Source: Methanobacterium sp. UBA410
GTDB lineage: Archaea; Methanobacteriota; Methanobacteria; Methanobacteriales; Methanobacteriaceae
Assembly: GCA_002498385.1 (NCBI GenBank)
Contig: DAHH01000019.1
Coordinates: 1,772-65,771, forward strand
Length of the DNA stretch: 64,000 nucleotides
Direction of reading: 5' to 3'
Positions 38,826 through 59,379 of this stretch are shown piece after piece (within the stretch, counting starts at the first letter, position 1; every line of letters begins with the position of its first letter). Made by a program: the position numbers and the translations under genes. The notes under the pieces were generated by a model. It searched no databases. It was not told the origin of the DNA and worked only from the letters and a program-made list of their open reading frames with translations.

Positions 38826-39173
38826 ATGAAGGTCATGGCATTTAATGGAAGCTCAAGAAAGAGGGGAAACACTGCAGCCCTGCTTGAGAAAGCCCTTGAA
38901 GGGGCCAGACCAGAGGGAGCAGAAACAGAACTAATTCACATCTACGATCTGGATTATAAAGGATGTAAAAGTTGTTTTGTCTGCAAGCTGAAGGGAAGTA
39001 AAAGCTACGGAAGACGTGCTCAGCGGGACGCTTTGACACCCTTACTTGAAGAGGTTAAAAACTGTGATGCTCTTATATTGGGTTCAGAATTAAAGGCAAA
39101 AAGGCACAGGGAAGTTTTCCCTGAGGACTGTGAGAAGGCCTTCAAGATGGGTGCCAGGTTTGCAGGAAGATGA
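38826..39173 (+). pseudogene. internally deleted remnant of a flavodoxin-fold FMN reductase paralog
   Basis: Matches the 37498 gene through 'MKVMAFNGSSRKRGNT...CKSCFVC...CDALILGS', then jumps to a C-terminal tail. The FMN-binding core is missing. 115 aa against about 183. Confidence 0.5.
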
Positions 39174-40424: not shown

Positions 40425-43400
40425 GTGAAAAGTACGAAAAAACAAGCGACTTTAATGATATTTAGTTTAATTTGTGCACTGGCACTTTGTGGTAGTGCTT
40501 CTGCTGCTGATGTTGCTTTAAATACCACACACAATGGCACAGTTTCAGGTGATCTTTATGTGAACGCTACGCAGCCTGTGGCTTGGGGTAATCAGGCTAG
40601 TGGTGTAAATAGTCGAGAATTTAATCAGACTTTTAATCTGCCTACAAATGGAACAAATATCCAATGGGCAGAGGTATATGTGAATATTTACTCGGGAACT
40701 GCAAGTGCTAACTGGCCTTCCAATGCCACCATCATGTTGGATGGTGATGGTGATGGAGTTTATGAGACTACACTTGGCAATGAACTACTTGACAGTGGTA
40801 CTAAACATTCCATGGATGGGGTACAGTACTGGATTAATGGGCACTGTTTCAGAGTTGCCTCAGACTACCAGCTGTGTTACAACGTCACAGGACTAATAAC
40901 CTGCAACAACCCTTCCATCTATGTGAAAACCGAAAAAGTAGGCACATCTTCCTATGATGGCCGGTTGAAGATGATTGCACTGGTTGCAGCCTACAACGAC
41001 GGAGACAATGACAAAGTGGATTACTGGGTGAATGATGGACAGGACTGGATAAGCAGCGGTACATCACAGACCACCTTTAAAACCAGCACAGTAACCAGCA
41101 CAGTAACCAATGCCACACTCAATACCGTAGCTCTTTCCAGTGCAGATGGAAGCTACATATTTAACGGTGAAAAACACAACGGAACAAACTCAGTAAACCC
41201 AGTGAATTACTTCGAGACTCATACATGGAATGTCACCAGCCAGATCACTCCGGGAAATGACAGTACATTAACTTACAGAGCTGGAAACGGATCTTTTAAA
41301 AACGTTCTGGCTACACTCACGCTACGTGAAAAACCAGTAGCTCCAAAAGCTAATTTCACAGCAAACGCAACTTCAGGCAATGATCCATTAGGAATAACAT
41401 TTACTGATGAATCCACAGGAACTATAACAGGATACAACTGGGATTTTGGTGATAACAGCACATCAACTGATGAAAACCCAAAACACACCTACACCAAAGC
41501 AGGTACCTACACTGTAAAACTTATGGTAACAGGACCTGGCGGTAATGACACCAAGGTGATGAATAACTACATTACAGTTCTATCCCAGTGTGATCTTCAG
41601 GTTACTGAAGTAACAATCCCTGTAAATGGACCAACTGTTTTCCCAGGTGAAACAAACAACGTGACAGTTACCATCAAAAACAATGGTCCTGATGCTTCTC
41701 AGGCCACTACGGTGAATCTTTACGCCAGCGACGTTACTTCTGGCCCGGTAGCCTCAGCAAACGTGCCAGCACTGGCATCTGGAGCACAAACAACCGTATT
41801 ATTAACTGATCCAACGATCCGTCCCATAACCGCAAACACCACCTACGGAAACAGCAATGCAAGTTATGTGACCTACACTGCAAATGTGGACCCTCTTAAC
41901 ACTGTACCTGAATCCAATGAAAACAACAATCAGCTGGCCAGTACAGCATGCCCAGTTTACTACAACGGCTACAAGGGTAAACAGTACGAGTACGGTGGAG
42001 ATGATTCAACCCAGCGCAGCTACGATCTGCGCGGAGATCTTGTCTATTCAATTGGAGACTCGACCTACGGTAGTAAAAAGGCTGGTTATACTGTAAAATG
42101 GAACTCGACAGATCTTACAATTCCTGCAGGTGCAACTATCAAGGAAGCATGGTTGTACATGGCATATTCCTGGGACAGCACCAATCTCTTCCCAGGCAAC
42201 ATGCAGATAACCTTTGATGGTCAGAATGTTTCCTACGTTAAATGGTACTACGATCTTAGTAACTTCGGTAGTTGGGGTAGTGGTGTTTATGGAATGTTAA
42301 CGTACAACGTAACTTCACTCTTCCAACCAAACTCTGAAAATAATGTTACAATTTTTAACAGTACAGTCAGTGCAACTTTGTATCCATTCACGTTAATGGT
42401 GATCTACGAGGATTCAAGTTCTACTGAGAAACAGATATTCATAAATGATGGATACGATCTTTTAGGTGTGGATGAGCGTTATGGAACAACAATTAATGAA
42501 GCAACAGCTTATACTCAATTTAATGGAACAATAAAAGATATTTCAAATGTTAAGAGTGCAAAACTCATAACATCTACATCAGCCACTGGTCAGGGTGAAG
42601 GTAACCTGCTTTTTAATGGTAATACACTTGGACTAAATGTCTGGAACGCAACAAGTACATACTGGTATGCTATTGATGTGCACGATGTGAAGGATTACCT
42701 CAACACATCCAACAACACGGTAGGTATCCAGGAAACAGATTCATGCTTAGGTGCAAATCAACAATTTTTAGTTTTAGAATACAATGAACCGGTACCAGTT
42801 GCAAATTTCACATCCAACACAACCAATGGAACAGTACCACTTGATGTGCAGTTTACTGATAATTCTACAGGTTACATAACATCATATGCCTGGGACTTTG
42901 ATGGTGATGGAACTGTTGATAGTACAGCTCAAAATCCAAGTTATACCTATACCAAATCGGGTAATTACACTGTAACAGAGACTGTAACAGGACCAGGTGG
43001 TAGTAACAGTACAACTAGTATCGTAACAGTTAACGCTCCTGATCTCGTCGTGACAAATGTTACAGCTAACAACGGCACCGGTGGCTGCATGTTCGCCAAC
43101 GAGCCTAACGTGATCTATGTAACAGTTGAAAACAATGGAACTGCAGCAACTCCAGAGTCCACACTCAACGTGAACATAAATGGAACGGATTACACTGTGA
43201 ACGTTCCTGCTTTAGCTGTGGGTGAATCCACAACTGTAACTGTAACAGATCCAGTTTCACGAAAAGATGGTGACAGCGTACCTATAAATGCTACAACCAA
43301 TCCAAACAATACCATACCAGAAACCAACACGTCCAACAACAGCTTCTCAACCAATTTAACAGTTTACAACAACGGATACAAAGGTAAAAGATGCACTGAC

Positions 43401-45023
43401 GGCAGTGACATAGACACCCAGAACACGTTCCAGGGTAACTACGATGTGGAGTACTCCAGTGGTAATTCAGCCTATTCTGGTAGTAACTGGACATCAAATA
43501 ATGTCACATGGACTTCAAGTCAGCTGCCAATACCTGAAGGAGCTACTGTAACCCAGGTCAGACTTTACCAGCCCTACACGTGGGATAAAACAAGTGGTCA
43601 GCCACATTTGAATGTTATTTTCAACGGTGGAAATGTTGTGAATTATATCGGTTGGTACACTGACAGTAAAGGATTTGGAAGCTCTAATTACCCATCAGGA
43701 CTTTTCGTCTACGATGTGACGAGCTTATTCAACACTGCAGGCAACACTCTCAACATGACACCCGGAACTGGTACAAATCTAATACTCTACGGCAGCTACC
43801 TAGTAGTGGTTTACCAGGACCCAAACACAACCAATAAAACCATTATTATCAATGACGGCTGCGACCTGCTCTGTTCAAACCCAGCATATTCTGTTAACGA
43901 CACTGAAGCAACAGCATACGCTAACTTCCAGAACGTTAGCACGAATAAAGCTATAAATGCCAAACTCATTGACGTGCTTGCTTCAGCAAATGGAGATGAT
44001 GGTAATGGAGCAAACCAAGCATTCTTCAACGGCAGCGTTGTAGGTTCATTCAATTCAGACTACCTGAAAGATCCAGAGATAGGTTTCAGTCTTTTCAACA
44101 TAACAAGCCTGCTCCAGAATGGTACCAACACTGCAGCTATGCAGAGCCACAACAACGCCACCAAAGGTGACAACATGGTAGCTTTAAGCAGTTTACTGGT
44201 TATTGAGTACGATACTGTGGCTCCTACGGTGAGTGCAGATATTAAAGGTGGTTCTTTTAATGCTTCGCAGAGTGTTAATTTAACGGCTTTGGATGATCAG
44301 GATTCTAATCCAACGATTTATTACACAACTGATGGTAGTGACCCAACAACGAGCAGTGCTAAGTATACTGGTTCTATCAGTGTTGCTAAGACTACCACGT
44401 TGAAGTTCATGGCGGTTGATGCTGCTGGTAATCATTCAAACATCTGTAATGAGACCTACGCGATTCCTGATGCGGATGTTTATGTGAATTCTTCGGTAAG
44501 CGAGACCAATCCAAAGGTTGGTGACACAGTTACTGTGACGCTTAAGGTTGGAAACAATGGTCCTGACACAGCTCATGGCGTTGTTGTAACCTACACAGTG
44601 CCTGAGGGAATGGAATTTGTTGGTGCAATCACTGACACGCCAGGTGCCTCAGCACCAGTCTACAACGCAACCACAAGAACTGTTACCTGGAATATTGGTG
44701 ATGTACCAGTTGGAGATCCTAAACTCTTCGTAACCTTGAAGGTTTTAACTGCTGGTAAACTTGCAGGTAATGCTCTTGTAACCTCAACATCCCACGATCC
44801 AGTTTCAACTGATGATACAGGATCCTTAACTGTTGAAGCAGTGGATGTGCAGTCCGGAACAGGACAATCAACAGCGGGACAAGAAAGTAGTTCTGTTGCA
44901 AACGCAGCAGAAGTTACAACCACCAGTAAGGTACCGATGCAGCCAACAGGAATCCCATTAGCAGGATTTGTCTTAGCTGCTCTCTCCATATTCAGTGGAC
45001 TGTTAGTTCCAAGAAGAAAATAA
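40425..45023 (+). CDS. large secreted cell-surface protein: [DUF3344-like / PKD / CARDB] x2 + DUF3344-like + chitobiase-C-like Ig + DUF11, with an LPXTG-like C-terminal anchor
   Basis: Signal peptide 'LMIFSLICALALCGSASAADV'. PKD 'ITFTDESTGTITGYNWDFGDNSTS...HTYTKAGTYTVKL' (approx. 41343-41585 and 42792-43035). CARDB 'DLQVTEV...VTVTIKNNGPDAS' (approx. 41592-41940 and 43035-43360). DUF11-like 'VGDTVTVTLKVGNNGPDTAHGVVVTYTVPEGMEFV'. The start is uncertain because the GTG is embedded in GGAGGTG. Confidence 0.8.
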   Translation: MKSTKKQATLMIFSLICALALCGSASAADVALNTTHNGTVSGDLYVNATQPVAWGNQASGVNSREFNQTFNLPTNGTNIQWAEVYVNIYSGTASANWPSNATIMLDGDGDGVYETTLGNELLDSGTKHSMDGVQYWINGHCFRVASDYQLCYNVTGLITCNNPSIYVKTEKVGTSSYDGRLKMIALVAAYNDGDNDKVDYWVNDGQDWISSGTSQTTFKTSTVTSTVTNATLNTVALSSADGSYIFNGEKHNGTNSVNPVNYFETHTWNVTSQITPGNDSTLTYRAGNGSFKNVLATLTLREKPVAPKANFTANATSGNDPLGITFTDESTGTITGYNWDFGDNSTSTDENPKHTYTKAGTYTVKLMVTGPGGNDTKVMNNYITVLSQCDLQVTEVTIPVNGPTVFPGETNNVTVTIKNNGPDASQATTVNLYASDVTSGPVASANVPALASGAQTTVLLTDPTIRPITANTTYGNSNASYVTYTANVDPLNTVPESNENNNQLASTACPVYYNGYKGKQYEYGGDDSTQRSYDLRGDLVYSIGDSTYGSKKAGYTVKWNSTDLTIPAGATIKEAWLYMAYSWDSTNLFPGNMQITFDGQNVSYVKWYYDLSNFGSWGSGVYGMLTYNVTSLFQPNSENNVTIFNSTVSATLYPFTLMVIYEDSSSTEKQIFINDGYDLLGVDERYGTTINEATAYTQFNGTIKDISNVKSAKLITSTSATGQGEGNLLFNGNTLGLNVWNATSTYWYAIDVHDVKDYLNTSNNTVGIQETDSCLGANQQFLVLEYNEPVPVANFTSNTTNGTVPLDVQFTDNSTGYITSYAWDFDGDGTVDSTAQNPSYTYTKSGNYTVTETVTGPGGSNSTTSIVTVNAPDLVVTNVTANNGTGGCMFANEPNVIYVTVENNGTAATPESTLNVNINGTDYTVNVPALAVGESTTVTVTDPVSRKDGDSVPINATTNPNNTIPETNTSNNSFSTNLTVYNNGYKGKRCTDGSDIDTQNTFQGNYDVEYSSGNSAYSGSNWTSNNVTWTSSQLPIPEGATVTQVRLYQPYTWDKTSGQPHLNVIFNGGNVVNYIGWYTDSKGFGSSNYPSGLFVYDVTSLFNTAGNTLNMTPGTGTNLILYGSYLVVVYQDPNTTNKTIIINDGCDLLCSNPAYSVNDTEATAYANFQNVSTNKAINAKLIDVLASANGDDGNGANQAFFNGSVVGSFNSDYLKDPEIGFSLFNITSLLQNGTNTAAMQSHNNATKGDNMVALSSLLVIEYDTVAPTVSADIKGGSFNASQSVNLTALDDQDSNPTIYYTTDGSDPTTSSAKYTGSISVAKTTTLKFMAVDAAGNHSNICNETYAIPDADVYVNSSVSETNPKVGDTVTVTLKVGNNGPDTAHGVVVTYTVPEGMEFVGAITDTPGASAPVYNATTRTVTWNIGDVPVGDPKLFVTLKVLTAGKLAGNALVTSTSHDPVSTDDTGSLTVEAVDVQSGTGQSTAGQESSSVANAAEVTTTSKVPMQPTGIPLAGFVLAALSIFSGLLVPRRK

Positions 45024-45121
45024 ACCCATTTTCCCTTTTTTATTTTTTTAAGGTCTGAATTTAACTTTAAGCTTAAACTTACTTTTAATCCTGTAATGAT
45101 ACTTTAATTAATCTTATTTCA

Positions 45122-48100
45122 GTGGAGGCACATAAATTGGCGAATAAAAAAGTCAAAATAAATATTTTCATGCTACTCTTCTTAACACTGTTTTCTTTAA
45201 CAATCTGTGGCACCGCCTCTGCAGACAGTAGTGTGGGAGGTCAGCCCGTTGTCACAGTTTTAAACGGCACTGTGAGCGGTGGTCTCTACAATGATTCTTA
45301 TTATGGTATCAATGGCTCAGAAGATCACCAGAACGTAACTTACAATTTCAAGGATCTTCCAAGTAACGCCCAGGTTCAAAATGCCACACTTTATGTAGCT
45401 GTTTACTCTGGAAACATGCAGAGTGATCATATAACCTGTGCAAACGTTACTTTCAATGGTAAACAGATTGACAGCCAGACTTTAGACACCCACTATAATT
45501 CTCCAAGTAGCGGTGGCAACGATAACACCGCTTACGGTGGAACAAGAAGGGATCCCTACCTTATAGTAAACAACCACACTGTAAGGGTTACCAGTGATTA
45601 CATCATGTGTTATGATGTCACAAGCCTCGTAAAACAAAAAAACATGGCTTACGTTGACACGGTCGGTTCCTACGATGGTGGAATAAAGCTCATAACTTTA
45701 ATTGTGGCTTACAATGATGGGGACTCGGATAAAATAGCCTACTGGGTAAACTTTGGCCAGGACGTTTGTGACTCTAATGACTCTGGAAATACAACGTTCG
45801 GTGGATTGCCTGTGGATGATACAGTAAACAGCGCAATTTTAAAGGTTATACACCTGGCAAGTGCTGATGGTATATATCACTTTAACAGTGCTCACGACAG
45901 TATGGACAACATCCTTTCCAACAGCAGTCCAGTTGGAAGTTACAGTGGATCAGATACATGGGATGTTACAAGCATGTACAAAAAGGGCACTGAAAACACC
46001 TTAATTTACCATAGAAGTCTCGCATATTACAAACTGGTACTGGCCCTTCTAACAGTAAACTACACAGAACCAGCGGTTAAATTACCAGATTTACAGGTTA
46101 GCAACATTATATGCAACCCAGATGCAATCAAACTTTCAGGTAACCTTTTTTCTGACAGTTCCAACACCATAAAAGCCACGGTTAAGAATTTAGGCAGTCT
46201 TGATGCAGGTCAGTTCAAAATGGTCCTTAAGGTTGGTAACTACATAGAAACAAAGGTGATAAAAGGCCTGGCATCCGGTGCAAGCACAATTGTTTCATTT
46301 ACAGGGTTTTTGCCCATCACAAATGGGCTTGTTACACTGGATGTAACTGCAGACAGTGATGGGCAGATTACAGAGGCCAATGAAACCAACAACATGGCTG
46401 CCAAATCTGTGAACGTTGTTACAAGCATTCTTCCTGATCTTGTACCTGTGAGTATCAGCGTTCCAAGTGACCTGAAAGTAGACACGGCCTATCCTGTTAC
46501 TGTTACAGTTGTAAATGAGGGTGTTAAATCTTCAGGTAAAACAAGAGTTATCCTATGGGCAACAAATATCAAAACTGGAGATAAGGTTGAAGTTGGAAGT
46601 ATGGATCTGGACTCTCTACCTGTTAATGGAACGAAGGTTTTAACGTTCAGCTGGACACCAAAGCTCTACACAACCTACAACCTGACTGCAGAAGTTGACC
46701 CCGATGGATCCATAGAAGAACTGGATGAAACAAACAACAAAAAAGTGGATGTAGAATACGTAAAAGAACCAGGTTCCACCATGATCTTCCTCACCAGTGA
46801 CAATAATGGAGTTAACATCCTGGACTCTGCAGCACGGGAGGTACTTAAACAGTATCCAAAAATTGATTTCAAGATAAGGACTGGAACAGAGATATCAAAC
46901 ATGGACACAAGTGAGTTAAGGACATACCTCTTAAATTGTGATATCTTTATAGGTACGTGGGTAACTACAGAAGCTTACGAAGCAATAAATGCAACTTTAA
47001 CGGCTTATCCAGATCTTATCAATGTAATTGCAGGTAAAAAAGTATTTTTGGTGCTGGAACCTCCAGCATCAACAGTTTCAAATGCAATAAACTTCATGAA
47101 CTACTCTGTTATTGATGGAGTTAAACTGCTTGGAAACTTCACATCTGATGATTTAACTGCTTACTACCAGAACACTGAGAGGGGTACTGATTACAATCAG
47201 GTTTTAAAGTACGTTGAATCTGGAACTCTTGCAACCCTCATCAAGAGTTATGAGGGAGCAAGCAGTGATGTTAAAACCAGCATAGTTTCCCAGGTAAAAT
47301 CCATTATAAACATCTTCAACATAGGTTCGAACATCCAGAACTTAACTGGAGATAATCTGATAAATGCAGTGAAAGCTTACCTATCACTGGTAACCTTAAC
47401 CACCAGTTATTCCAGTGCAGGTACAGATGAAAGAAACAAAATAGCTGCCAAGATCCAGGAACTCATAAAAAACTACAACTTCAACTCCTTCACTGATGAA
47501 ATGAATGCATGTGTTGCCCTTGAAACATTGGTGGACAACTATCAAAACGCATCAACGGACGAGGATAAAACCAAGATAGTTTCACGGCTTGAAAACATCA
47601 TTAAAGATATAACAGCTTACACAGCTGCAACCAGTGATTCTGATAGGGCAAACATTCTCCATGACTTTAAAAGTCTTATTGGCAGTACAGGAACAGATGC
47701 AGATGCAGTTACAATGATGGTTCAGGTGAGAAGCATCCTTGAAGACGTAACTGGCATGAAACTTGAGAACTTAACTGCTGATGAGAACCTAACAGGCAAC
47801 GTCACTGCAATCCTGAAGTACAGGGGAGTTTTCAATGACTACTTGATCGGCGCAGTCAGCAAATACACTGGAAGCACTGTTGTCACGGATTTAGACCTTC
47901 CAGACCTATTTGATAAGGCAGTGCTCTACAAAGATCTGAACGATGCTTCACGTGCAAAGGACATGATACTGTGGGCTTTAAGCCTTGATGGTTTTGTTAC
48001 AACCTACAACGAGCCGCCAAGTTTCTCAAGCACACCCTCCTATGGAATCTATAGAAATAAATGGTACTCTTACGTTGACAGTGACGGCGTGTGGCACACT

Positions 48101-51100: not shown

Positions 51101-52306
51101 CTTGCAATATCCAGAATATTTGCCCCACCAGAAAATGATTACGGTGCACTCATCAGCCAGTCTGTGAAGCAGAGCTGGACCTGGAGCAATTCCGCAGAAC
51201 TTGCAGAGAACTACCTGAACAGAATGGGACACATTTACTCCTCTGAAAACTGGGGAACCTACAGTGCAAAAGCATTCAAAAGAGCCCTCACAGGAGTTTC
51301 TAAAGTTTTCACAAGCAGGGACACAAACTTATACGGTATACTTGACAACGATGACTTTTTCGATTACTGGGGGGGTCTTTCACTGGCAATAACTGCAGTG
51401 AACGGTCAGACACCTGACATGTATGTTTTAAAATATGGTAGTGGTACTAAACCAGGAGTTATGGGCATTGAACAGTTCCTTAACAGGGAATTGAACACCA
51501 GATACTACAACCCACAGTGGATCCGGGGAATGATGAGCAGTGGGTATGCCGGTGCAGGATACATGCAGAAATTCGTATCCAACCTCTGGGGATGGCAGGT
51601 TACAAGGTCAAGCGCGGTTCAGAACTGGATGTGGGACAACATAGTTGACACATACCTCAAAGATAAAAACAACCTTGGGGTTACACAGTTCCTTGAAAAC
51701 GGTAACAATGCCTATGCCATGATAAGTATGACGGGAACGCTTTTAACGGCTGCTTACAATGGTTACTGGAAGACGGATCAGGCAACCTTACAGATGGTTG
51801 CAAATGAATGGGCTCGCATGGTTATTGAACATGGTGTGGCCTGCTGTGACTGTAGCTGCGGTAACATTGCCATGATGAAGTGGGCTGTTCAGTACATCAA
51901 TGTGGACATGCTGGCGCAGTTTAAAAGTCAATTATATGCTGCAACTCAGAATTCTGCATTTGCTCCTTCATCGCAGCAGCAGACAAATCCCGGTGAAAGT
52001 CAATCTTCTCAAAGTCAGTCCGGTCAGTCTCAATCTGGCCAGTCCAGTGCTCAGGGTAGTTCTCAGGGACAATCCAGTGGTTCAAATCAGGGTCAAAGTC
52101 CGGCAGGTGTTGGGACTTCATCTGGACAGTCATCCTCTGAGTCGGGCCAAGGATCCTCTGGAGATCAGGGTAAAGCCAGTGAGGTAACTCCTGTAAGCCA
52201 AAGTTCCTCTTCACAGACAGGAATGCCAATAGCAGCCATATTTGGTATTATTGCAATTGTCTGCCTTGTTGGTGTGGGGTACTTTAGGGGCAAAGGTAAA
52301 TTCTAA
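45122..52306 (+). CDS. giant secreted, C-terminally anchored DUF3344-like / CARDB / CobN-type chelatase-domain fusion protein
   Basis: Signal peptide 'IFMLLFLTLFSLTICGTASADSS'. The N-domain is homologous to the N-terminus of the previous protein ('NGTVSGGLY', 'VYSGN', 'RVTSDYIMCYDVTSL', 'AYNDGDSDKIAYWVN'). CARDB 'LPDLQVSNI...', 'LPDLVPVSI...'. CobN signatures 'FVGRHATHEWLPGKE', 'AKRRGSAVIIDHLTPP', 'DYWGG'. Ser/Gln-rich linker, TM helix, and a 'RGKGKF' tail. The TTG at 45137, 8 nt after GGAGG, is an alternative start. Confidence 0.85.
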   Translation: MEAHKLANKKVKINIFMLLFLTLFSLTICGTASADSSVGGQPVVTVLNGTVSGGLYNDSYYGINGSEDHQNVTYNFKDLPSNAQVQNATLYVAVYSGNMQSDHITCANVTFNGKQIDSQTLDTHYNSPSSGGNDNTAYGGTRRDPYLIVNNHTVRVTSDYIMCYDVTSLVKQKNMAYVDTVGSYDGGIKLITLIVAYNDGDSDKIAYWVNFGQDVCDSNDSGNTTFGGLPVDDTVNSAILKVIHLASADGIYHFNSAHDSMDNILSNSSPVGSYSGSDTWDVTSMYKKGTENTLIYHRSLAYYKLVLALLTVNYTEPAVKLPDLQVSNIICNPDAIKLSGNLFSDSSNTIKATVKNLGSLDAGQFKMVLKVGNYIETKVIKGLASGASTIVSFTGFLPITNGLVTLDVTADSDGQITEANETNNMAAKSVNVVTSILPDLVPVSISVPSDLKVDTAYPVTVTVVNEGVKSSGKTRVILWATNIKTGDKVEVGSMDLDSLPVNGTKVLTFSWTPKLYTTYNLTAEVDPDGSIEELDETNNKKVDVEYVKEPGSTMIFLTSDNNGVNILDSAAREVLKQYPKIDFKIRTGTEISNMDTSELRTYLLNCDIFIGTWVTTEAYEAINATLTAYPDLINVIAGKKVFLVLEPPASTVSNAINFMNYSVIDGVKLLGNFTSDDLTAYYQNTERGTDYNQVLKYVESGTLATLIKSYEGASSDVKTSIVSQVKSIINIFNIGSNIQNLTGDNLINAVKAYLSLVTLTTSYSSAGTDERNKIAAKIQELIKNYNFNSFTDEMNACVALETLVDNYQNASTDEDKTKIVSRLENIIKDITAYTAATSDSDRANILHDFKSLIGSTGTDADAVTMMVQVRSILEDVTGMKLENLTADENLTGNVTAILKYRGVFNDYLIGAVSKYTGSTVVTDLDLPDLFDKAVLYKDLNDASRAKDMILWALSLDGFVTTYNEPPSFSSTPSYGIYRNKWYSYVDSDGVWHTGLEEYEKEYFKSGQPCVGLLESTMYVTGNGLQPYYAIIAALEAKGINVIPIVAYGGTAAQLEAMLEIFTNATSYDKFILNPSAYKVNLDAVVDMVAYGLGGTDFSEIIPFFNALNVEVVAAVHSDFETNAQYALGTSGLNALTGDKWWHIAILEDQGIVDPIFVGGKAETVDPLTGTTISSYVPYEQNIELLANKISSWTALKYLSNAAKKVALIYYNYPPGKQNIAASYLDPVQSILNLLNVLKQNGYNVQNIPSNAALLLDEMMAQGTNIASWAQGLVEILANNNGSLLDELKAYQENDTYKVDLTKLDKTELEKLANTPGVILYSADDFMKWFNQLDDLVKLDITEGPVAYIGELCKRAVALGYVDNMDSVIDSWYSQMVSLLPDNQTNVALPILTNLISELKVYVDYNSTAAYNKYLNYKKEFLAIEIKGMSGWGDFPGNVMTVVKNGIKYFVLPGIQFGNVLIAPEPQRGWEGNAEQLYHNSVVPPDYQYLAFYAYLQQQGYNAMVFVGRHATHEWLPGKEVLEDADDFTSIVTGNVPQIYFYIVDGVAEGITAKRRGSAVIIDHLTPPMGFTSLYGGMSDLESLVEDYDGADDAGKASIIIKIKETVKDNNLAADIGIDINNLSSDKIIKLINEYLEAVTNTFYPYGVDVLGQNWTDDQIALLVTSMLSVPFNVGGGNETSLQNEIALLMRGKTYDSLNAAEQNAVQEKCIEVVKELLQSDVTTVANKLTPNPTENLQTALKKAVTYCNEIKESVNNEINSFLNALNGGYITPGPANDPINNPEALPTGRNFYQDQAAEIPTKQAYQNAKDLVLATLEGSDLKDTVKKIVVGIWDVETARDNGELIAMILCLLGMEPQWTDSPSAGSGGAKLKEMPIYDELSSLVRPDGWGKKRIDVVVVIDGNFRDLYSRQLGLLDKAFRVALARSYYTLLNNATLQSKYGDKMKTALDAVLLDIGYYGLGSEPLDDNYVAYDWVDDFQYYMDEGMNCTEAGELAISRIFAPPENDYGALISQSVKQSWTWSNSAELAENYLNRMGHIYSSENWGTYSAKAFKRALTGVSKVFTSRDTNLYGILDNDDFFDYWGGLSLAITAVNGQTPDMYVLKYGSGTKPGVMGIEQFLNRELNTRYYNPQWIRGMMSSGYAGAGYMQKFVSNLWGWQVTRSSAVQNWMWDNIVDTYLKDKNNLGVTQFLENGNNAYAMISMTGTLLTAAYNGYWKTDQATLQMVANEWARMVIEHGVACCDCSCGNIAMMKWAVQYINVDMLAQFKSQLYAATQNSAFAPSSQQQTNPGESQSSQSQSGQSQSGQSSAQGSSQGQSSGSNQGQSPAGVGTSSGQSSSESGQGSSGDQGKASEVTPVSQSSSSQTGMPIAAIFGIIAIVCLVGVGYFRGKGKF

Positions 52307-52846
52307 AAATATTTTTCTTTTTTTCTTTTTTTAGATTAGTAAGATAATTTGTAATTAGTTTTAAAAATTAGTTTTTTGCAGATTCTGGATCAGCGCATGA
52401 TTATTTTAAAAATCCTGTAAAAAAAGTAGTTTCTGAAATGTTTAGAGTGTTTCAAACCCCTTGAAATTCAAGTTAATTCTATAAAAAGTTCTAAGAATAT
52501 GTTTTAGATCTCTATTTTGAATCCAAACTTCAAGGAGGAAATAGAGGATCTAAACTATTAAAACAAGAGTTAGATCCCGGTTACCCATTTTTTTCTATTT
52601 TGATGTTTTTTTTAGGAGGTTTAAAACTGTTCAGTGGTGGAATTAATTATTGGTCTCATCACCACACTTGCTTGTGCACCACAGTATATAAAGCTTTCTT
52701 TATTTTTTATCAAGTAACTGTGAAAAAAATAGTAAATTATATAAGTCATATTTACTTTACTTTTTTTCATGTACATTTGATTAATTTGGATTGATTGTTG
52801 AATGTACAATAAAAAATTTCTTATAAAAAGTGAAGGAGGTGAAAAT

Positions 52847-55800
52847 GTGAAAAAGCAAGTGTTATTACTATTTTTTGGTCTTATTATTGGAATTACAGTT
52901 TTTGGATCAGCGGTTTCAGCTGCCGACGTGAATTCTAATGTTAATGGCGCTCAAATTCAGATGGATAGTGATGTTTCAAACAGTACTGTAAATCCATCCG
53001 GTATTAATGCATCAACAGTAGTCGTGAATTCTCAAGGTTCAAACAACTGTGAGGATTCAGATTATAATGTTACAGCAGGTACTGATCCAGAAATTACCCT
53101 GAATGTTAATCTTGAACATCCAAAAGCACTTTCCAATAATTTACCAACAGTAACGGTAACAGATTCAGATGGTAAAACCATAGGTGATGTAACAGTAACA
53201 AAAACTGGAGACAAACAGTACAAAGTGAACTTCACAAGCGATAAAAAGAACTTCAACTTAACAGTTGGTGCAGGAGGACATGTACCTCAAACAGTGAACG
53301 TATCAGTCTCACAAAAAAACGCCAGCGATTCTACACGCTACGGTGAAGCAACAGTAAACCTGAGGGTTTACAATCTACTTATAATCAGTGGATCTCCAAA
53401 TTATGCCAAGAACTTCGTTGATTCGAATAGGGAATTAAGAGATAAAGGTTACTACTTTAATTTGAACTTTTTCACCACAACTGATGTAATATCCGGTGAT
53501 CCCAATGTGCAAAACAAGATAAAAAAAATGGCTTCAAGGGCAGACCTTATCATTCTTGAAATGATGAGTGAACAGGACACAGTTTCAATGGTAAGAAAAC
53601 TTATAAATGGCACAAATGCCAAGATAATGGCTTTAAGATGTGGTGTGACATTTTTAAATGACCCAATCATTGACTCAAACGACACTGAACTGACGGCTTA
53701 CTGGGATGGAACGGGTACAGAGAACATGGCAAGATTCCAGTTAAAAGCACTTCAAAAAGTGGGAATGAATGTTGACCCTTCCGAAGATCTGAGTGTTGTT
53801 AATTATCCAACTGAGTTCATTTACCATCCAGATTCTAACATATCAATGTTTTCAACGTGGGATGACTACCTGAAATGGTACATGCAGAGTGGTCATTACA
53901 AATCGGGAGCCCCATGGGTTGGAATAATGATGTATGGGTCAATGTTTTTCGGTGGAAACAGTGATATGGCTATGAGTATACTCAGAAGCCTTGAAGCAAA
54001 GGGTTTAAATGTGATTTTAGCTGTAACTACATCCACTGATAAAGCCAGAGTAAATGCAATCCTCAAATATTTCTTGGACGGTGATCTAAGTAGAATAAAT
54101 GCCCTTGTGGCCTGTGTGGGTTTCAACATCATTTACAATAACCCACAAAACAGTACAGATCTACTTAAAAAAATGGATATACCCATATTTGCACCGATAT
54201 ATGCTTCAGACCTTGAAGCATGGAAAAATAGTTCTGGTGGATTGTCTAGTGAGGTTTACTGGCAGGTTGCATGGCCAGAGATGGAAGGAAGGATAGAACC
54301 CATTATAATGGGTGGTGTAGAGTCTGGAGAAACAGATCCGTACACAAGCATCACAGTTAAAAACTATGAACCGATAGCAGATCGGATAGAAAGAATAGCA
54401 AACAGAGTACTGAACTGGGTAGAACTTCAAACTCTCCCCAACAGTGGGAAGAAAATAGCTTTGATCTATTACAACACTGCAGGGGGTAAAGATGGTGTTG
54501 GTGCTTCTTACCTCAACGTATCTGAAAGCATATCTGAAATTCTAAAAGCTCTCAAAGCAGCAGGTTACAATTTATCAGATGATTATTCAGTGGATTCCAT
54601 AATTAAGCTGCTTTTAACTGCGGGTAACAACGTTGGTTCCTGGGCTCCGGGAGAGCTTAAAAAGGTTGTGGATGCAGGTGCGATAACCATACCCGTTAAT
54701 GAATACATGCAGTGGTTTAATGCTTTACCTGAAGAACTTAGAAATGAAGTTATCGTTAAATGGGGTCCAGCTCCTGGTAATGTCATGGTTTATGAAGATA
54801 AAATCGTTTTACCTGGCATAATGTTGGGTAATATTTTTGTTGGAGCTCAACCAATGCGTGGATGGGGAGAAGATCCTGCGCAGATAGCTCACTCTCCAAC
54901 CTTACCACCAACTCACCAGTACATAGCCTTTTACATGTGGCTACAAAATGAAATGAAGGCCAATGCAGCCATACATCTGGGAACACACGGAACACTGGAA
55001 TGGTTGCCAGGAAAAAGTGTGGGATTAAGTGGTGATGACTGGCCGGATGTTCTAATGGGAAACATACCTGACATATATCCATATATTGTGGATAACCCTG
55101 GAGAAGGAACTCAGGCCAAAAGAAGGGGTTATGCAGTGATAATTGATCACATGACTGCTCCTGAAATAAGCTCAGGGCTCTATGGAGATCTTTCAGACCT
55201 GCAGACTCTGATAAACAGCTACGACAGTACCACCGATGAGGAACGTAAAAATGTTCTTGAAAAGCAGATCAGGGAACTTGTAACCAAACTGCATCTGGAC
55301 CAGGATCTGGGAATCAACATGGATACTGAAGCTTTCAACAACATTAAAAATGATGTTGAACACAAATTGCAGGATATTTCAACAACACTCATGCCTTACG
55401 GTCTTCATACCTTTGGAGTTACCCTAAATGGTACAATTCTGGATCAGATGATTGAATCCATAGTCAGCTTTGACCCAGCAACTAGGGACAACCAGGAATT
55501 CAGAGACAAATTAAGAGAGGAACTTTCTAAAAACTATGAAATAGAAGATTTATTGACAGTATTGAGTGGAAAATTTGTATCGCCTGCTTTGGGTGGTGAT
55601 CCAATTCGTAAACCTGATGTTTTGCCGACTGGTATGAACTTTTATTCATTTGATCCAAGATCAGCGCCAGATAAAACTGCCTGGGAAATTGGTAAGAATA
55701 TGGCCGATGACATGATTGCAGATTACTACCAGAAAAATGGTCACTACCCAGAATCAGTAGGAGTTGTTTTATGGTCAACTGAAACCATGCGTACCAACGG

Positions 55801-57283
55801 TCAAACTATAGCCATGATACTCAGGTACATGGGCTTAGAACCGGTCTGGGATTCCTCAGGAAGATTCAAAAGCTTTAAAGTAACACCATTGAGTGAGCTT
55901 CAGAGGCCTCGTTTGGACGTCATGGTAACCATAAGCGGTCTTTTCAGAGACACCTTCTCTTACACAATTGATGTTTTAGACCGGGCCTGTCGTGAAGTTG
56001 GAAGCCTACAGGAAAGTAACAGTGACAACTACGTTAAAAAACACTATCAAAATGACTACAATAAATATATACAGGAAGGAATGAGTTCTAAAGATGCAGC
56101 AAAATTTGCAGGAGCCCGTATATTCGGCCCTGCTGCTGAAGGTTATGGAACAGGAATTGCGGCACAGGTACCTTCAACTTCAGGATGGAAGGACCAATCA
56201 GATCTTGTGGATACTTACCTATCAAGAATGTCCTACATTTATGGCAGTGGAAACTACGGTGTTCAGGCAACTGAAACCTTTAAAGACCAGCTTAAAAATG
56301 TGCAGGCAACTGTACAGGTCAGAGACAATAATTATGGGCTTCTGGACAACGACGACGTGTACCAGTACCTCGGTGGTTTAACCATGGCTGCAAAAAGTCT
56401 TTCTGGCCAGGATGTAAATGTTTACATAGCAAACACCAGATCACAACCAAGAATAGAAACTTTGGGAAGCTTCCTGAGTAACGAACTTCGAACCAGACTC
56501 TACAATCCTAAATGGATTCAGGGAATGCTTAATGAAGGTTTTTCAGGGGCTCATGAGATAGATCAGGAACTAGGAAACTTTTTCGGCTGGAATGCTGTTA
56601 CTCCAGGTGCTATAAGTGATTGGATGTGGCAGGGTATGGCTCAAACTTATGCGTTTGATTCAAGTGTCCGAAGCCAGATGCTTCAGGCAAATCCTTATGC
56701 TTACACTTCGATGCTTGGGTGGATGCTTGAGGCAGGTAGAAGAGGCATGTGGAATGTTGATAAGACAACTCTAACGGAACTTGCCAATCAGTACGCTAGT
56801 TACACGAATCAGTACGGTGTTACATGTTGTCATCACACCTGTGCGAACATCATGTTCAACCAGTGGGTTGTTCAGGCTTCTTCCTTAAATAGCGGCCAAC
56901 TGCAGCAGTTTGCAAGTGTTGTGGCTGCTGCCACAGGTAAGAGCATAAGTGTTCCAAGTGGTTCAAGCAGTCAATCTGGTTCTCAGAGTTCCAGTGGGTC
57001 TCACTCTTCTTCGTCTGTGACTCCTGGTCTCAGTGCATCTGCAAGTAAAGTTCAGGGCAGTGCATCTGGTGCACAGTCAAGTTCTGCATCTCAGAGTGGT
57101 TCAGCTGGTTCTCAAAGTAGTTCTACCAGTGGATCCAGTAGTAAAAATGCGCATGAGATCTCTCCAGTGAGCTCTCAAAGTTCTTCAGCAGCATCTGGAG
57201 TTTCTTTTGCAGCCATAATTGGGGTAATATGCATTGTGTGTCTTGTTGCTGTGGGATACTTTAGAACTAGAAGAAATATTTAA
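52847..57283 (+). CDS. secreted, C-terminally anchored CobN-type chelatase-domain protein (paralog of the previous gene's C-terminal part)
   Basis: GTG start 5 nt after GGAGGTG. Signal peptide 'VLLLFFGLIIGITVFGSAVSAADV'. CobN signatures 'HLGTHGTLEWLPGKS', 'AKRRGYAVIIDHMTAP', 'LPTGMNFYSFDP', 'VYQYLGG'. Ser-rich linker, TM 'FAAIIGVICIVCLVAVGYF', and a 'RTRRNI' tail. Confidence 0.85.
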   Translation: MKKQVLLLFFGLIIGITVFGSAVSAADVNSNVNGAQIQMDSDVSNSTVNPSGINASTVVVNSQGSNNCEDSDYNVTAGTDPEITLNVNLEHPKALSNNLPTVTVTDSDGKTIGDVTVTKTGDKQYKVNFTSDKKNFNLTVGAGGHVPQTVNVSVSQKNASDSTRYGEATVNLRVYNLLIISGSPNYAKNFVDSNRELRDKGYYFNLNFFTTTDVISGDPNVQNKIKKMASRADLIILEMMSEQDTVSMVRKLINGTNAKIMALRCGVTFLNDPIIDSNDTELTAYWDGTGTENMARFQLKALQKVGMNVDPSEDLSVVNYPTEFIYHPDSNISMFSTWDDYLKWYMQSGHYKSGAPWVGIMMYGSMFFGGNSDMAMSILRSLEAKGLNVILAVTTSTDKARVNAILKYFLDGDLSRINALVACVGFNIIYNNPQNSTDLLKKMDIPIFAPIYASDLEAWKNSSGGLSSEVYWQVAWPEMEGRIEPIIMGGVESGETDPYTSITVKNYEPIADRIERIANRVLNWVELQTLPNSGKKIALIYYNTAGGKDGVGASYLNVSESISEILKALKAAGYNLSDDYSVDSIIKLLLTAGNNVGSWAPGELKKVVDAGAITIPVNEYMQWFNALPEELRNEVIVKWGPAPGNVMVYEDKIVLPGIMLGNIFVGAQPMRGWGEDPAQIAHSPTLPPTHQYIAFYMWLQNEMKANAAIHLGTHGTLEWLPGKSVGLSGDDWPDVLMGNIPDIYPYIVDNPGEGTQAKRRGYAVIIDHMTAPEISSGLYGDLSDLQTLINSYDSTTDEERKNVLEKQIRELVTKLHLDQDLGINMDTEAFNNIKNDVEHKLQDISTTLMPYGLHTFGVTLNGTILDQMIESIVSFDPATRDNQEFRDKLREELSKNYEIEDLLTVLSGKFVSPALGGDPIRKPDVLPTGMNFYSFDPRSAPDKTAWEIGKNMADDMIADYYQKNGHYPESVGVVLWSTETMRTNGQTIAMILRYMGLEPVWDSSGRFKSFKVTPLSELQRPRLDVMVTISGLFRDTFSYTIDVLDRACREVGSLQESNSDNYVKKHYQNDYNKYIQEGMSSKDAAKFAGARIFGPAAEGYGTGIAAQVPSTSGWKDQSDLVDTYLSRMSYIYGSGNYGVQATETFKDQLKNVQATVQVRDNNYGLLDNDDVYQYLGGLTMAAKSLSGQDVNVYIANTRSQPRIETLGSFLSNELRTRLYNPKWIQGMLNEGFSGAHEIDQELGNFFGWNAVTPGAISDWMWQGMAQTYAFDSSVRSQMLQANPYAYTSMLGWMLEAGRRGMWNVDKTTLTELANQYASYTNQYGVTCCHHTCANIMFNQWVVQASSLNSGQLQQFASVVAAATGKSISVPSGSSSQSGSQSSSGSHSSSSVTPGLSASASKVQGSASGAQSSSASQSGSAGSQSSSTSGSSSKNAHEISPVSSQSSSAASGVSFAAIIGVICIVCLVAVGYFRTRRNI

Positions 57284-57288
57284 TTTTT

Positions 57289-57317
57289 GGGGTTTAAACC
57301 CTTTATTTTATTTTTTA
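57289..57317 (+). terminator. candidate terminator: GGGTTTAAACCC palindrome followed by a T-rich tract
   Basis: Lies 6 nt after the stop of the CobN paralog: 'ggggtttaaaccc tttattttatttttt'. Confidence 0.35.
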
Positions 57318-57667
57318 AATCATTGGATCAAAGTTTTTAGGATTTTATTTTTGGTTTTAAGGTGATATTTTCTTGTTTTGCTCAGTTATTGATGTTTGTT
57401 GGTTTTAAGTTTCATAGGAAAATAGATTTTTCAGATGGTTTTTTTTGGACTGTTTTTAATCAAAAACTTTAAATATTCCATTTATCTTTAATTTTTATAA
57501 AGTATTCTTGATTAGGGGGAATGGCTAAACCAAAGAAGTTACAAAAAGGATTCGATCATATGCGAATAAGTTTTAAATAGATTAATGTATTACTTAAAGG
57601 CTTAAAAACAGCTTTAAAGTAATAATATTTATCAAATGAAAAGTATTATATGCTCAAAGAATAAATC

Positions 57668-58387
57668 ATGGAAATGATTAAAATGATTGAGTTACTATGG
57701 AAATTAGGAGTTCTATCAGCAGTTCTGGTTTTTGGAGTGAAGATTGGACTGGCAATGGGATTTGCAGGTTTGTCTAAAAAACTGGCAGCTTTGATCACCT
57801 TTGGATACGGTGGTGGGATACTTATCCTGTCAAAACTGGCTGAGGCTTATACAAGCGTTCTTTATAATGTTATCTATAACTACAGCAGTGTTGCTTTCAT
57901 GTTGATGGCGTTGATCATTTTTGTTGCAGGGTTCCACACCATTAAGGAGTGGAAGAAGAACAAGAAGAACCATGCAAAGGCCACATGTGCAGCCATGATA
58001 GCACCTTGCCCATGTTGTTTTGGGGCAGTTATAACTGCGATCATAATTGTATCACCAATAATTGGAGCTTCATCTTTCTTTGTTGGAAAGTACGCAGCAA
58101 TATTTTTGATGGTGTTCATAGGTGTTTTCTACCTGTTATCCGATGTGATCGTGAGGATCAGCAGGAAACCCTTCCCGGTTTTGCTGGGTAACTTCATGCT
58201 CTTTGTTGGATTGTACTTCCTCGCATCTGCCCTGATCATGCCAAACATCAGCTCGGTTTTAGCATCGCCCATGTCCAAAGTGGAAATTCCTTCAGTTGCA
58301 AACATGGTTTACGTGTTGATCGTGGTTGTAGCTTTGCTGGCATTGGGAATTTATAAAACAAGGAAAACCAGTTCTCTGATAAATTAA
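57668..58387 (+). CDS. polytopic membrane protein (DUF2162-like predicted transporter) with an intramembrane Cys cluster
   Basis: About 6-7 hydrophobic helices. 'TCAAMIAPCPCCFGAVITAIIIV' lies in a predicted TM segment. The family name is from memory. Confidence 0.7.
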   Translation: MEMIKMIELLWKLGVLSAVLVFGVKIGLAMGFAGLSKKLAALITFGYGGGILILSKLAEAYTSVLYNVIYNYSSVAFMLMALIIFVAGFHTIKEWKKNKKNHAKATCAAMIAPCPCCFGAVITAIIIVSPIIGASSFFVGKYAAIFLMVFIGVFYLLSDVIVRISRKPFPVLLGNFMLFVGLYFLASALIMPNISSVLASPMSKVEIPSVANMVYVLIVVVALLALGIYKTRKTSSLIN

Positions 58388-58403
58388 GGTGAGGGGTGAA
58401 TCA

Positions 58404-59078
58404 ATGGTATCAATTCCGGGCAGTGACTTGCTTAGTGGAGCTTTACACGTGGTTTCGCAGAGTCTTCTCATACCAGTAATGGTGACTCTGTTAATATTTC
58501 TAGTTTATGCAGTGATTGAGGTAGGAGGAATCCTATCTGAATATTCAAGTAGAATCAAGCTTGATGCAGCTCAAGTTGAGCTCATTGTAAAAGGCATCAC
58601 TGTTGCAACTACATCATCTGATATATGCAGGGTTGTAGAAAACACTGAACTTCCACGTGAACACAAAGACGTACTTATAAAAATTGCAAACAATATTGAA
58701 ATGGCTCCAAAGGCCAGGGAAACACTTGCAAGAAAATTAATTGAAGATGAAGAATTGAAGGCAGAAAAAAGAGTTGAAAAGACGGATATTATTGGTAAAG
58801 TTGGGCCTGCAATAGGTCTTATGGGTACGTTAATCCCACTGGGCCCAGGACTTTCAGCCATGGGTTCCGGAGATATAACCACGCTATCCAAACATTTGAT
58901 AATTGCGTTTGATGCTGCAGTTATTGGAATGGCCACAGCATCAATTGGATACACAATATCCAAGATCAGGAGGAGATGGTATGATGATCAGCTTTCAACT
59001 CTGGATGCACTTGCAGAATCAATACTGGAGGTTTTAGAAGATGTTAAGGCGGAGACGAAGACTGTCGTCTTCCAGTGA
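58404..59078 (+). CDS. MotA/TolQ/ExbB-family proton-channel protein
   Basis: Three-TM topology and the family core 'GPAIGLMGTLIPLGPGLSAMG...IIAFDAAVIGMATASIGYTISKIRRRWY'. ATG at 58404 follows GGTGAGGGGTGA, 17 nt after the DUF2162 stop. Confidence 0.8.
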   Translation: MVSIPGSDLLSGALHVVSQSLLIPVMVTLLIFLVYAVIEVGGILSEYSSRIKLDAAQVELIVKGITVATTSSDICRVVENTELPREHKDVLIKIANNIEMAPKARETLARKLIEDEELKAEKRVEKTDIIGKVGPAIGLMGTLIPLGPGLSAMGSGDITTLSKHLIIAFDAAVIGMATASIGYTISKIRRRWYDDQLSTLDALAESILEVLEDVKAETKTVVFQ

Positions 59079-59379
59079 AGATATAGACCCCATGGTTTAC
59101 GCCGTGAACATGGTGGACTGCATGCTTGTGCTTGCTGTGGGCTTTCTGATCTTCACTGTGATGTCCATGGGTTTGCAGAGTATTGTTTTCAGCGACGCAA
59201 CACCCCAGCAGAAACAGGAAATGATAAAAACAGTGGCACAAACAGTCCAGGTCCAGCAGGGACAGCAGCTAAATGAAACACCTCAAACATCATCTGGATC
59301 AGGCTCAGGATATGCAGAAATGGGAAAAGTCTACAAAGATCCCTCAACAGGCAAACTTATCATGGTGCAGGGTTCTTGA
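59041..59379 (+). CDS. ExbD/TolR-like single-TM protein (DUF2149-like), truncated exterior domain
   Basis: 'RRRRRLSSSSEDIDPMVYAVNMVDCMLVLAVGFLIFTV' parallels the E. coli ExbD N-terminus 'INVTPFIDVMLVLLIIFMV', including the TM Asp. Overlaps the ExbB-like gene by 38 nt. Confidence 0.65.
   Translation: MLRRRRRLSSSSEDIDPMVYAVNMVDCMLVLAVGFLIFTVMSMGLQSIVFSDATPQQKQEMIKTVAQTVQVQQGQQLNETPQTSSGSGSGYAEMGKVYKDPSTGKLIMVQGS

Follow-up and report, generated by a model that had tools for sequence, protein, structure and literature searches.

We analysed a 64-kb stretch of Methanobacterium sp. UBA410 DNA (contig DAHH01000019.1; hereafter the window) that carries a locus of six co-directional plus-strand genes, all of which an open reading frame (ORF) search places where an earlier note on this DNA had listed them (Table 1). 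Three encode very large, predicted surface proteins (giants 1 to 3), two of them with bodies related to CobN, and three encode a membrane triad of a DUF2162 protein, a MotA/ExbB-like protein, and a DUF2149 protein. Sequence comparison suggests that the locus is an archaeal form, lacking a TonB-dependent transporter (TBDT), of the HmuS/PA1923-type module of bacteria and archaea. The core of this module consists of one or more outward-facing, anchored proteins of the CobN/ChlH/HmuS superfamily with the MotA/ExbB-like and DUF2149 proteins, and DUF2162 is added in archaea and in Trichlorobacter. The best explanation that we can offer, with about an even chance of being right, is a scavenging module for nickel (Ni) and cobalt (Co) limitation that works outside the cell, in which a proton-motor pair possibly replaces the AAA+ ATPase. 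In the earlier note the locus was treated as being without precedent, its homology to hmuSTUV having gone unnoticed.

The CobN bodies of giants 2 and 3 belong to the class I chelatase large-subunit superfamily (CobN/ChlH/HmuS, PF02514). The Pfam CobN-Mg_chel match has an E-value of 1.5e-235 (785 bits) in giant 2 and is full-length in giant 3 (1143 bits), and comparison with solved CobN, ChlH and HmuS structures gives 480–528 bits; the scores with the best NCBIfam model, the CobN equivalog NF004645 (956 and 729 bits), are below its curated cut-off of 1619. The cleft residues His-538 (in HxGxHG), Glu-577 and Asp-1208 (HmuS numbering) are kept in both paralogues and in nearly all cassette CobN homologues. 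The HmuS motif LSLDHxxEFMGG, with His-1209 and Glu-1212, is absent from the window, which has LLDNDDVYQYLGG and LDNDDFFDYWGG; position 1209 is Asp in giant 3, and the active-site motifs of giant 2 are GRHATHEWLP and LDNDDFFDYWGG. The window motif, L(L)DNDD(V/F)(Y/F)(Q/D), is of the cobaltochelatase "DD" type and matches those of the solved cobaltochelatases 9UK9 and 7C6O (LLDSDDYYQ and IADSDDYFQ) and of a protein of Trichlorobacter (Geobacter) lovleyi (LDNDDFFQ); all of the archaeal cassette CobNs matched by regular expression are of this D-D type, and His stands in place of the second Asp in HmuS, ChlH, and an Azospirillum homologue. The HmuS haem site Met-79/His-254 is absent, with Gly or Ala for His-254 in the window (the N-terminal alignment is weak here), and the Met-rich insertion of HmuS (118 residues, 21 of them Met) compares with 14–39 residues and no Met in the archaeal proteins. 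These motifs assign the active site of the CobN proteins to the cobaltochelatase type, not to that of HmuS.

These residues bear on the possibility that the locus scavenges iron as HmuS does, the ectodomains de-chelating haem or another iron tetrapyrrole and Fe(II) entering through FeoB. Besides the fact that HmuS is the only characterised member of the group (PMC12583661), this would account for the feoAB and nicotianamine-synthase-like (NAS-like) genes that adjoin the cassette in loci L003/L092, L111 and L121, and for a groundwater contig (L145) in which a DtxR-type repressor and FeoB_N directly precede DUF11-CobN, TPR-DUF2162, ExbB-like and DUF2149 genes. It would not account for the absence of the HmuS signature residues and insertion, for an operator (described below) that is common to cbiMNQ and cdhA and not to feo genes, or for the cobalamin riboswitches that precede the nearest bacterial relative, and we consider iron scavenging quite unlikely.

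Two other features of the CobN bodies were noted. Residues ~700–880 of giant 2, in the CobN N-terminal region but outside the Pfam CobN profile, contain several helical repeats of ~35 aa with the form Y-x-x-A-S/T-x-D-x-x-x-K-x-x-I-x-x-x-x-x-x-I-I. Near the end of the body there is a Cys cluster, CC(H/D/G)x(T/S)C(A/G)N, at ~56950 in giant 3 and ~51970 in giant 2, which is kept in archaeal copies (including L141 and L145), is lacking in HmuS of Bacteroides thetaiotaomicron, and may be a metal or iron-sulphur site.

All three giants begin with a hydrophobic signal-like segment bearing the ASA/SAD cleavage-type motifs quoted in the earlier note, and end with a transmembrane (TM) helix followed by a basic tail. 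The ORF of giant 3 reaches back to 52802; its start is placed at GTG 52847 because a Shine-Dalgarno sequence (GGAGGTGA) precedes that codon, and the previously given length of 1478 aa therefore stands. Among 44 full-length cassette-linked CobN homologues, 43 are anchored at the C-terminus, ending in a G(Y/F)F(R/K) tail, and 36 have the N-terminal signal-like segment. N-glycosylation sequons occur in giant 1 at 3.9 per 100 aa, ten times the density in cytoplasmic proteins of the window, and in the CobN bodies at about twice the cytoplasmic density. Giant 1 is predicted to be a secreted wall protein with a C-terminal anchor, and the CobN bodies are predicted to be extracytoplasmic. The earlier note had likewise placed these bodies outside the cell, and there is experimental precedent in HmuS, a haem de-chelatase of B. 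thetaiotaomicron that is bound to the membrane and depends on NADH (PDB 9D26), and whose body is periplasmic and held by N- and C-terminal TM helices (PMC12583661, PMC12094164).

The C-termini of the giants (~44930–45023, 52210–52306 and 57190–57283) have a Ser/Gln/Gly-rich linker before the TM helix; both CobN giants end in G-Y-F-R/K and giant 1 in LVPRRK. A (P/Q)TG(I/M)P motif stands right before the TM helix in giants 1 and 2 and resembles a sorting signal; the NCBIfam C-terminal sorting-domain models do not match the giants' C-termini. An AlphaFold2 model of the giant 2 DUF3344 domain (45227–46066) is a tandem beta-sandwich (predicted local distance difference test score, pLDDT, 89.5; predicted template-modelling score, pTM, 0.90) with weak similarity to PNGase F and double-jelly-roll proteins (template-modelling score ~0.3). 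DUF3344 was considered as a hemophore-like or corrinoid-binding fold, but these weak structural matches give no clue to a ligand; its homologues come mainly from methanogens (Methanolinea, Methanoregula and Methanoculleus).

Of the six gene identities in the earlier note the first five are as described, and the sixth, which it called ExbD/TolR-like, belongs to Pfam DUF2149. The ExbB-like protein is of the HmuU type: a full-length alignment with B. thetaiotaomicron HmuU shows 29% identity (E 1e-32), and the protein matches the T. lovleyi homologue with an E-value of 9e-25, compared with 2e-6 for canonical ExbB. The DUF2149 protein spans the membrane once, by a TM helix near its N-terminus, and has a short beta-hairpin at its C-terminus. 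Its TM Asp (D26, in NMVDCMLVL) is invariant across archaeal and bacterial sequences, as are D16, P17, N23 and V30, and the surrounding N-x-(V/F)-D-x-(M/A)-(L/M)-V is similar to IPFIDIMLVL in canonical ExbD. DUF2149 was rejected as a sequence relative of ExbD/TolR, since no PDB chain is matched at E<=10 by a profile built from 24 DUF2149 sequences and the TM Asp motif alone is in common.

The pair is like the ExbB-ExbD, TolQ-TolR and MotA-MotB stators in having a MotA_ExbB domain, overlapping genes, and a small single-pass partner whose TM helix starts with an Asp that looks essential. It differs from them in that the partner, DUF2149, has only the short hairpin as ectodomain, in that neither TonB nor TolA is evident, in the lack of an outer membrane, and in a gene context that is neither flagellar nor archaellar. 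The DUF2162 protein of the window has an intramembrane C-x6-PCPCC motif, and PCPxC is kept in most distant members, the bacterial one included. The family is small, with 185 of the clusters that 1.84 billion representatives form at 50% identity, and literature searches for "DUF2162" and "COG4827" found no papers under either name. DUF2162 was also compared with HmuT, which has no Pfam match; the hhalign probability is 0.1, and the two are equivalent in position only.

As the earlier note stated, the window has no evident AAA+ partner and no TonB gene: tblastn within the 64 kb found no ChlD/ChlI-type AAA+ protein (best E 6.5 with a ChlD-like query), no TonB-like ORF, and no canonical ExbD gene. 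Neither an HmuY hemophore, an HmuR TonB-dependent receptor, nor an HmuT is found in the window. The window CobN proteins share with CobNST and ChlHID the superfamily fold and cleft residues, and with CobN the D-D motif. They differ in that CobNST and ChlHID are soluble, cytoplasmic, and driven by ATP through AAA+ partners, whereas the window proteins are predicted to be secreted and anchored, have no nearby AAA+ gene, and adjoin a putative proton-channel pair.

The earlier note mentioned CobN-like genes in TonB-dependent metal-uptake loci of bacteria, and such loci do exist: PA1922–PA1925 of Pseudomonas aeruginosa (PMC4542158), a cluster in T. lovleyi (PMC3403914), and the hmu operons. The hmuYRSTUV operons of Bacteroidota encode a CobN-like protein (HmuS), a membrane protein (HmuT), a MotA/ExbB-family protein (HmuU), and HmuV, which in the recovered B. 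thetaiotaomicron loci belongs to DUF2149 like the window protein. Both these operons and the archaeal locus have a big CobN-family protein anchored at N- and C-terminal hydrophobic segments with its body extracytoplasmic, followed by a ~235-aa polytopic protein, a ~205–230-aa MotA/ExbB protein, and an overlapping ~110-aa DUF2149 gene, with no AAA+ partner. The archaeal locus differs in the absence of HmuY and HmuR, in having DUF2162 at the HmuT position, in the CobN residues described above, in having additional wall modules of the DUF3344/CARDB kind and two or three paralogous giants, and in its regulation. The hmu operon of Porphyromonas gingivalis is reported to hold B12-box structures (PMC11681262).

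The closest bacterial counterpart is the T. lovleyi SZ plasmid pGLOV01 (Glov_3667–3675), in which all four families are present as in the archaeal locus: TBDT, DUF2162 (with PCPVC), MotA/ExbB, DUF2149, and CobN genes are followed by a separate canonical ExbB-ExbD-TonB set. Its CobN is the best full-length match to giant 3 (32% identity over 1234 aa, 644 bits), is secreted by signal peptide with a C-terminal TM anchor, and has the same LDNDDFFQYLGG motif as the archaeal CobN. It differs in that the triad precedes CobN, TonB-dependent receptors flank the cluster, and control is by riboswitch, with two cobalamin riboswitches before the TBDT and the whole cluster lying among cobamide lower-ligand genes; the cobN-exbBD-tonB cluster was originally read as an ordinary TonB system (PMC3403914). 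In P. aeruginosa, PA1922–PA1925 encode a TBDT and CobN-like, MotA/ExbB-family and DUF2149 proteins; the operon belongs to the Zur regulon, and the last three genes are co-transcribed and strongly induced by zinc limitation (PMC4542158, PMC9431628). Compared by its published description, it shares these three families with the archaeal locus and differs in the TonB-dependent receptor within the operon, in that no DUF2162 is reported, and in that the metal is zinc (cobalt accumulation is noted).

When plasmids were searched by tblastn, the ExbB-like protein of the window matched ten records only, all of the same subfamily, and in the three loci inspected CobN stands beside the ExbB-like gene in each. 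Linkage of CobN with ExbB and DUF2149 is found again in Bacteroidota, Pseudomonas, Azospirillum, Diaphorobacter, and Trichlorobacter. On the Azospirillum brasilense plasmid p4, a cobalamin riboswitch (L148, 7731–7948; 119 bits) lies directly after CobN (DH-type), MotA/ExbB and DUF2149 genes and before an operon of an ABC transporter and a TBDT. On the Diaphorobacter plasmid (L147), an unannotated DUF2149-type ORF (MKFLDETEADDPILSVVNLIDVFLVV..., 7531–7917) follows the MotA/ExbB gene and was missed by the public gene table.

The lack of an outer membrane in these archaea and the separate ExbB-ExbD-TonB set of T. lovleyi argue against a triad that does no more than energise TonB; for HmuU and HmuV, a role in the service of the CobN-type enzyme or in transport across the inner membrane is more likely. 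The second of these options has been advanced for P. gingivalis, whose HmuTUV is proposed to carry haem across the inner membrane (PMC13227078). Together with the cobamide-gene setting of the T. lovleyi cluster behind its B12 riboswitches, this raises the possibility that the CobN ectodomain simply binds a corrinoid or tetrapyrrole and that the triad is an importer, driven by the proton-motive force (PMF), of the intact macrocycle. We regard this as unlikely, since the strictly kept cleft residues H538, E577 and D1208 would be needless in a pure binding protein and the co-regulated cbiMNQ imports the free ion. Moreover, we know of no MotA/ExbB-type complex that acts as a substrate channel for large molecules.

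The arrangement goes far beyond chance. The triad recurs in 54 of 57 related loci (in the order DUF2162, ExbB-like, DUF2149), in Methanosarcinales-type contigs, and in a bacterium. Contigs were scanned with a DUF2162 alignment by matching exact AMIAPCPC/GNFMLF patterns, which yields Methanobacteriaceae only; wider taxa were reached through DUF2162 cluster look-ups. The scan gave 55 loci, all from Methanobacteriaceae, the closest 73% identical, so that the window's species lies outside the scanned collection. One or two CobN genes stand directly upstream of the triad in 34 of the 53 loci with upstream sequence, as expected from the linkage that the earlier note proposed, and DUF3344-CARDB-CobN fusions like giant 2 adjoin the triad in L087, L088 and L098. 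Distant DUF2162 members also lie in such a cassette (L141, L144 and L145); L141, a Methanosarcinales-type contig, has the quartet of CobN and triad, with two CobNs. In 12 of the 53 loci a NosD/beta-helix(+DUF11) surface protein is found upstream and DUF169 downstream, and the remaining 7 have other arrangements.

These 12 loci run counter to the notion that the triad is exclusive to CobN, and would fit a general, PMF-coupled partner of large wall proteins that acts in their assembly, anchoring, conformation or turnover, with the metal chemistry incidental. Such a role would also suit L143, where the triad is paired with an 829-aa protein without a Pfam domain, the Halobacteriota-type contig L144, where it accompanies beta-helix proteins, and the presence of giant 1, a pure wall protein, under the same operator. 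It would leave unexplained why the CobN-ExbB-DUF2149 linkage recurs in so many bacteria, and why the operator joins the CobN-linked triads to metal-uptake genes while NosD-linked triads have none; we judge this role to be distinctly unlikely.

The NosD-linked, or type-B, cassette comprises divergent NosD/beta-helix(+DUF11) genes with DUF2162, ExbB-like, DUF2149 and DUF169 genes, without CobN or operator (L101–L110, L112, L119, L131, L139 and L140), and both cassette types can occur in a single genome (for example OY969779.1 and CP099988.1). A 713-aa ChlD-like AAA+/VWA protein is encoded ~5.5 kb from the type-B triad and on the opposite strand in L104/L139 (2323–4464, minus strand) and is found in L106 and L119 also, whereas neither the window nor any of the type-A loci examined encodes it. 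A Methanobacteriaceae metagenome-assembled genome has a pseudogenised triad (L135, 10016–11402), in which the DUF2162 and ExbB-like genes are each split into two ORFs.

Putative regulatory sequences are also present at the locus. The octamer AAGTAATA has five occurrences in the window, all upstream of giant 1 or of DUF2162. It is part of a palindrome, (A/T)(G/T)TATTAC-N25-GTAATA(A/C)TA (37 bp from TATTAC to GTAATA), of which the window contains exactly four copies, all at this locus; the promoter-like 11-mer AAAGTATTATA has 2 matches in the 64 kb versus 0.07 expected, and a T-rich terminator-like tract follows the giant 3 stop at 57283. The outer hexamers of the palindrome are invariant, and its 25-nt spacer is neither conserved nor, in most loci, self-complementary; we therefore read it as a candidate protein-binding DNA operator, and on the same grounds an RNA hairpin or terminator was rejected. 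An Rfam scan of the archaeal locus found no cobalamin riboswitch or other Rfam element.

In the 931 kb of related loci compared, 68 operator sites are present versus 1.45 expected. These include sites upstream of DUF2162 (27), of cbiM in the cbiM-cbiN-cbiQ energy-coupling factor (ECF) transporter operon (12), of CobN (8), of an FmdE-domain protein (3), of a nicotianamine-synthase/CntL-like gene (2), and of cdhA (1), which encodes the alpha subunit of the Ni-containing carbon monoxide dehydrogenase/acetyl-CoA synthase (CODH/ACS); further targets are DUF3344 wall proteins and a major facilitator superfamily fragment. The operator precedes DUF2162 in 26 of the 34 CobN-linked loci versus none of the 12 NosD-linked ones. 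NCBIfam names the neighbouring ECF transporter CbiM/CbiN/CbiQ, a naming that fits Ni or Co alike. The half-site resembles that of the predicted bacterial NikR box, GTGTTAC-N13/14-GTAACAC (PMC545781), with a spacing that is one helical turn longer, and Methanothermobacter genomes have two or three NikR paralogues (PMC3087415).

The operator suggests that the cassette is part of a metal-limitation regulon, most likely for Ni and/or Co. The link to Ni/Co or corrinoids that the earlier note drew is favoured because the operator is common to cbiMNQ, the NAS-like gene and cdhA, because T. lovleyi has cobalamin riboswitches, and because the motif is of the cobaltochelatase type; the part of the evidence that does not go along with it is the feoAB and DtxR neighbours of some loci. 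The model of the earlier note, in which extracellular CobN domains would capture the metal or macrocycle and the triad would release or import it by means of the PMF, is supported in part.

We propose the following course of events. When Ni or Co is limiting, two promoters, that of the surface proteins and that of the triad, would be released by a metal-responsive repressor, which may be a NikR paralogue. At the pseudomurein wall, the CobN ectodomains would bind a metal-macrocycle or other metal chelate, for which corrinoids, F430-type or other Ni/Co tetrapyrroles, and metallophore complexes are candidates, and would remove or exchange the metal, as HmuS does with haem iron. The ExbB-like/DUF2149 pair would turn proton flow into the work that ChlI/D or CobS/T perform in the cytoplasm, or would gate import, and the freed ion could be carried inward by DUF2162, with its intramembrane PCPxC motif, or by the neighbouring CbiMNQO transporter. 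A proton-driven pair is proposed as the motor because ATP and AAA+ partners are unavailable outside the cell. In its most specific form, the HmuU-type MotA/ExbB and DUF2149 stator would have replaced the AAA+ ATPase and would work mechanically on the anchored CobN body to extract Ni/Co from environmental tetrapyrroles or corrinoids at the surface of a cell without an outer membrane, the HmuU/V proteins of the bacterial hmu, PA1923–25 and Trichlorobacter systems likewise serving the de-chelatase and not the TBDT; this we put forward tentatively, as possible but somewhat unlikely.

The same motor could supply the energy that class I chelatases need in the forward direction, and an active-site motif of the same type as in true cobaltochelatases would allow Ni/Co to be inserted extracellularly into a metal-free macrocycle, for example in the repair of scavenged corrinoids or F430 precursors. 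This seems to us very improbable, as a pool of metal-free corrinoids outside the cell is not known to us, the one extracytoplasmic member that has been characterised runs in reverse, and acquisition accords better with genes that are co-regulated with ion importers under what is presumed to be limitation.

Several observations weigh against a Ni/Co-scavenging module with a proton motor. The assignment of signal peptides is based on hydrophobicity and motifs alone, and no operator was found before the giant 3 gene. The N25 spacing of the operator is unlike the N13/14–16 of known or predicted NikR boxes, so that the operator fixes neither the regulator nor the metal, and the iron-type neighbours in some loci (feoAB, the DtxR-type repressor and FeoB_N) point to iron. 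Triads behind NosD/beta-helix proteins, without CobN and operator, make the triad not CobN-specific. In the triad itself, the PCPxC motif is absent from part of the DUF2162 family; the AlphaFold2 model of DUF2162 has low confidence (pLDDT 66.6), and the Foldseek comparison suggested in the earlier note gave no match below E 0.4. No sequence match between DUF2149 and ExbD/TolR proteins in the PDB is detectable.

Methanogens need exceptional amounts of Ni and Co, which are used in F430, hydrogenases, CODH/ACS, and corrinoid methyltransferases. We know of no role assigned to their "CobN" paralogues since CfbA was identified as the Ni-chelatase of F430 synthesis. The authors of the HmuS structure described the function of archaeal homologues as unclear (PMC12583661). 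The comparisons made here give these paralogues a predicted extracellular location, conserved partners in the triad, and a candidate regulon and operator, and they argue against current models of the bacterial hmu systems, in which HmuU/HmuV are drawn simply as energisers of the outer-membrane receptor. If true, proton-motor coupling would be a new way to power metal (de)chelation and would widen the known uses of ExbB/ExbD-type motors.

Table 1. Genes and putative regulatory elements of the locus (coordinates are those of the window).
Feature	Coordinates	Strand	Description
Giant 1 (1532 aa)	40425–45023	+	Pfam: DUF3344 (three), PKD (two), CARDB (two), CHB_HEX_C, DUF11
Giant 2 (2394 aa)	45122–52306	+	Pfam: DUF3344, CARDB (two) and CobN-Mg_chel, fused; predicted signal peptide and C-terminal TM anchor
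Giant 3 (1478 aa)	52847–57283	+	Full CobN-Mg_chel; predicted signal peptide, C-terminal TM anchor, then GYFR tail
DUF2162 polytopic membrane protein	57668–58387	+	Pfam E 8e-67
HmuU-type MotA/ExbB protein	58389–59078	+	Pfam MotA_ExbB E 1.4e-8; three TM helices, GLMGT motif
HmuV-type DUF2149 protein	59041–59379	+	Pfam E 2e-21; 38-nt overlap with preceding MotA/ExbB gene
Candidate operator, three tandem copies	40217–40352 (starts 40217, 40267, 40316)		TATTAC-N24/25-GTAATA; upstream of giant 1
Candidate operator, one copy	57588–57624		TATTAC-N25-GTAATA; before triad
B recognition element (BRE)/TATA-like element	40368–40378	+	AAAGTATTATA; 15 nt past last tandem operator copy
BRE/TATA-like element	57640–57650	+	AAAGTATTATA; putative triad promoter, 15 nt past operator

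The genes flanking the six-gene locus are housekeeping genes. Around it, all on the minus strand, are coenzyme M biosynthesis-like genes: TPP_enzyme_C (ComE-like, 36193–36735), TPP_enzyme_N (ComD-like, 39269–39766), and Ldh_2 (ComC-like, 60044–61075). They enclose the 19-kb cassette together with a reductase cluster, and the position of the cassette between the ComC/D/E-like genes may reflect insertions. The reductase cluster lies just upstream of the locus (36834–39173), where a minus-strand MarR-family regulator gene is divergent from genes for an FMN reductase, a nitroreductase, and a second FMN_red protein. FMN_red genes are also found downstream of type-B triads (L139 and L140); HmuS requires a reductant in vitro. 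Just past the end of the ComD-like gene, and ~600 nt upstream of giant 1, two perfect copies of a 15-nt direct repeat, CATTTAATTGAAAAT, stand at 17-nt spacing (39810–39841). Five tRNA genes stand in a tight row on the minus strand at 30843–31387 (Rfam tRNA matches of 52–71 bits).

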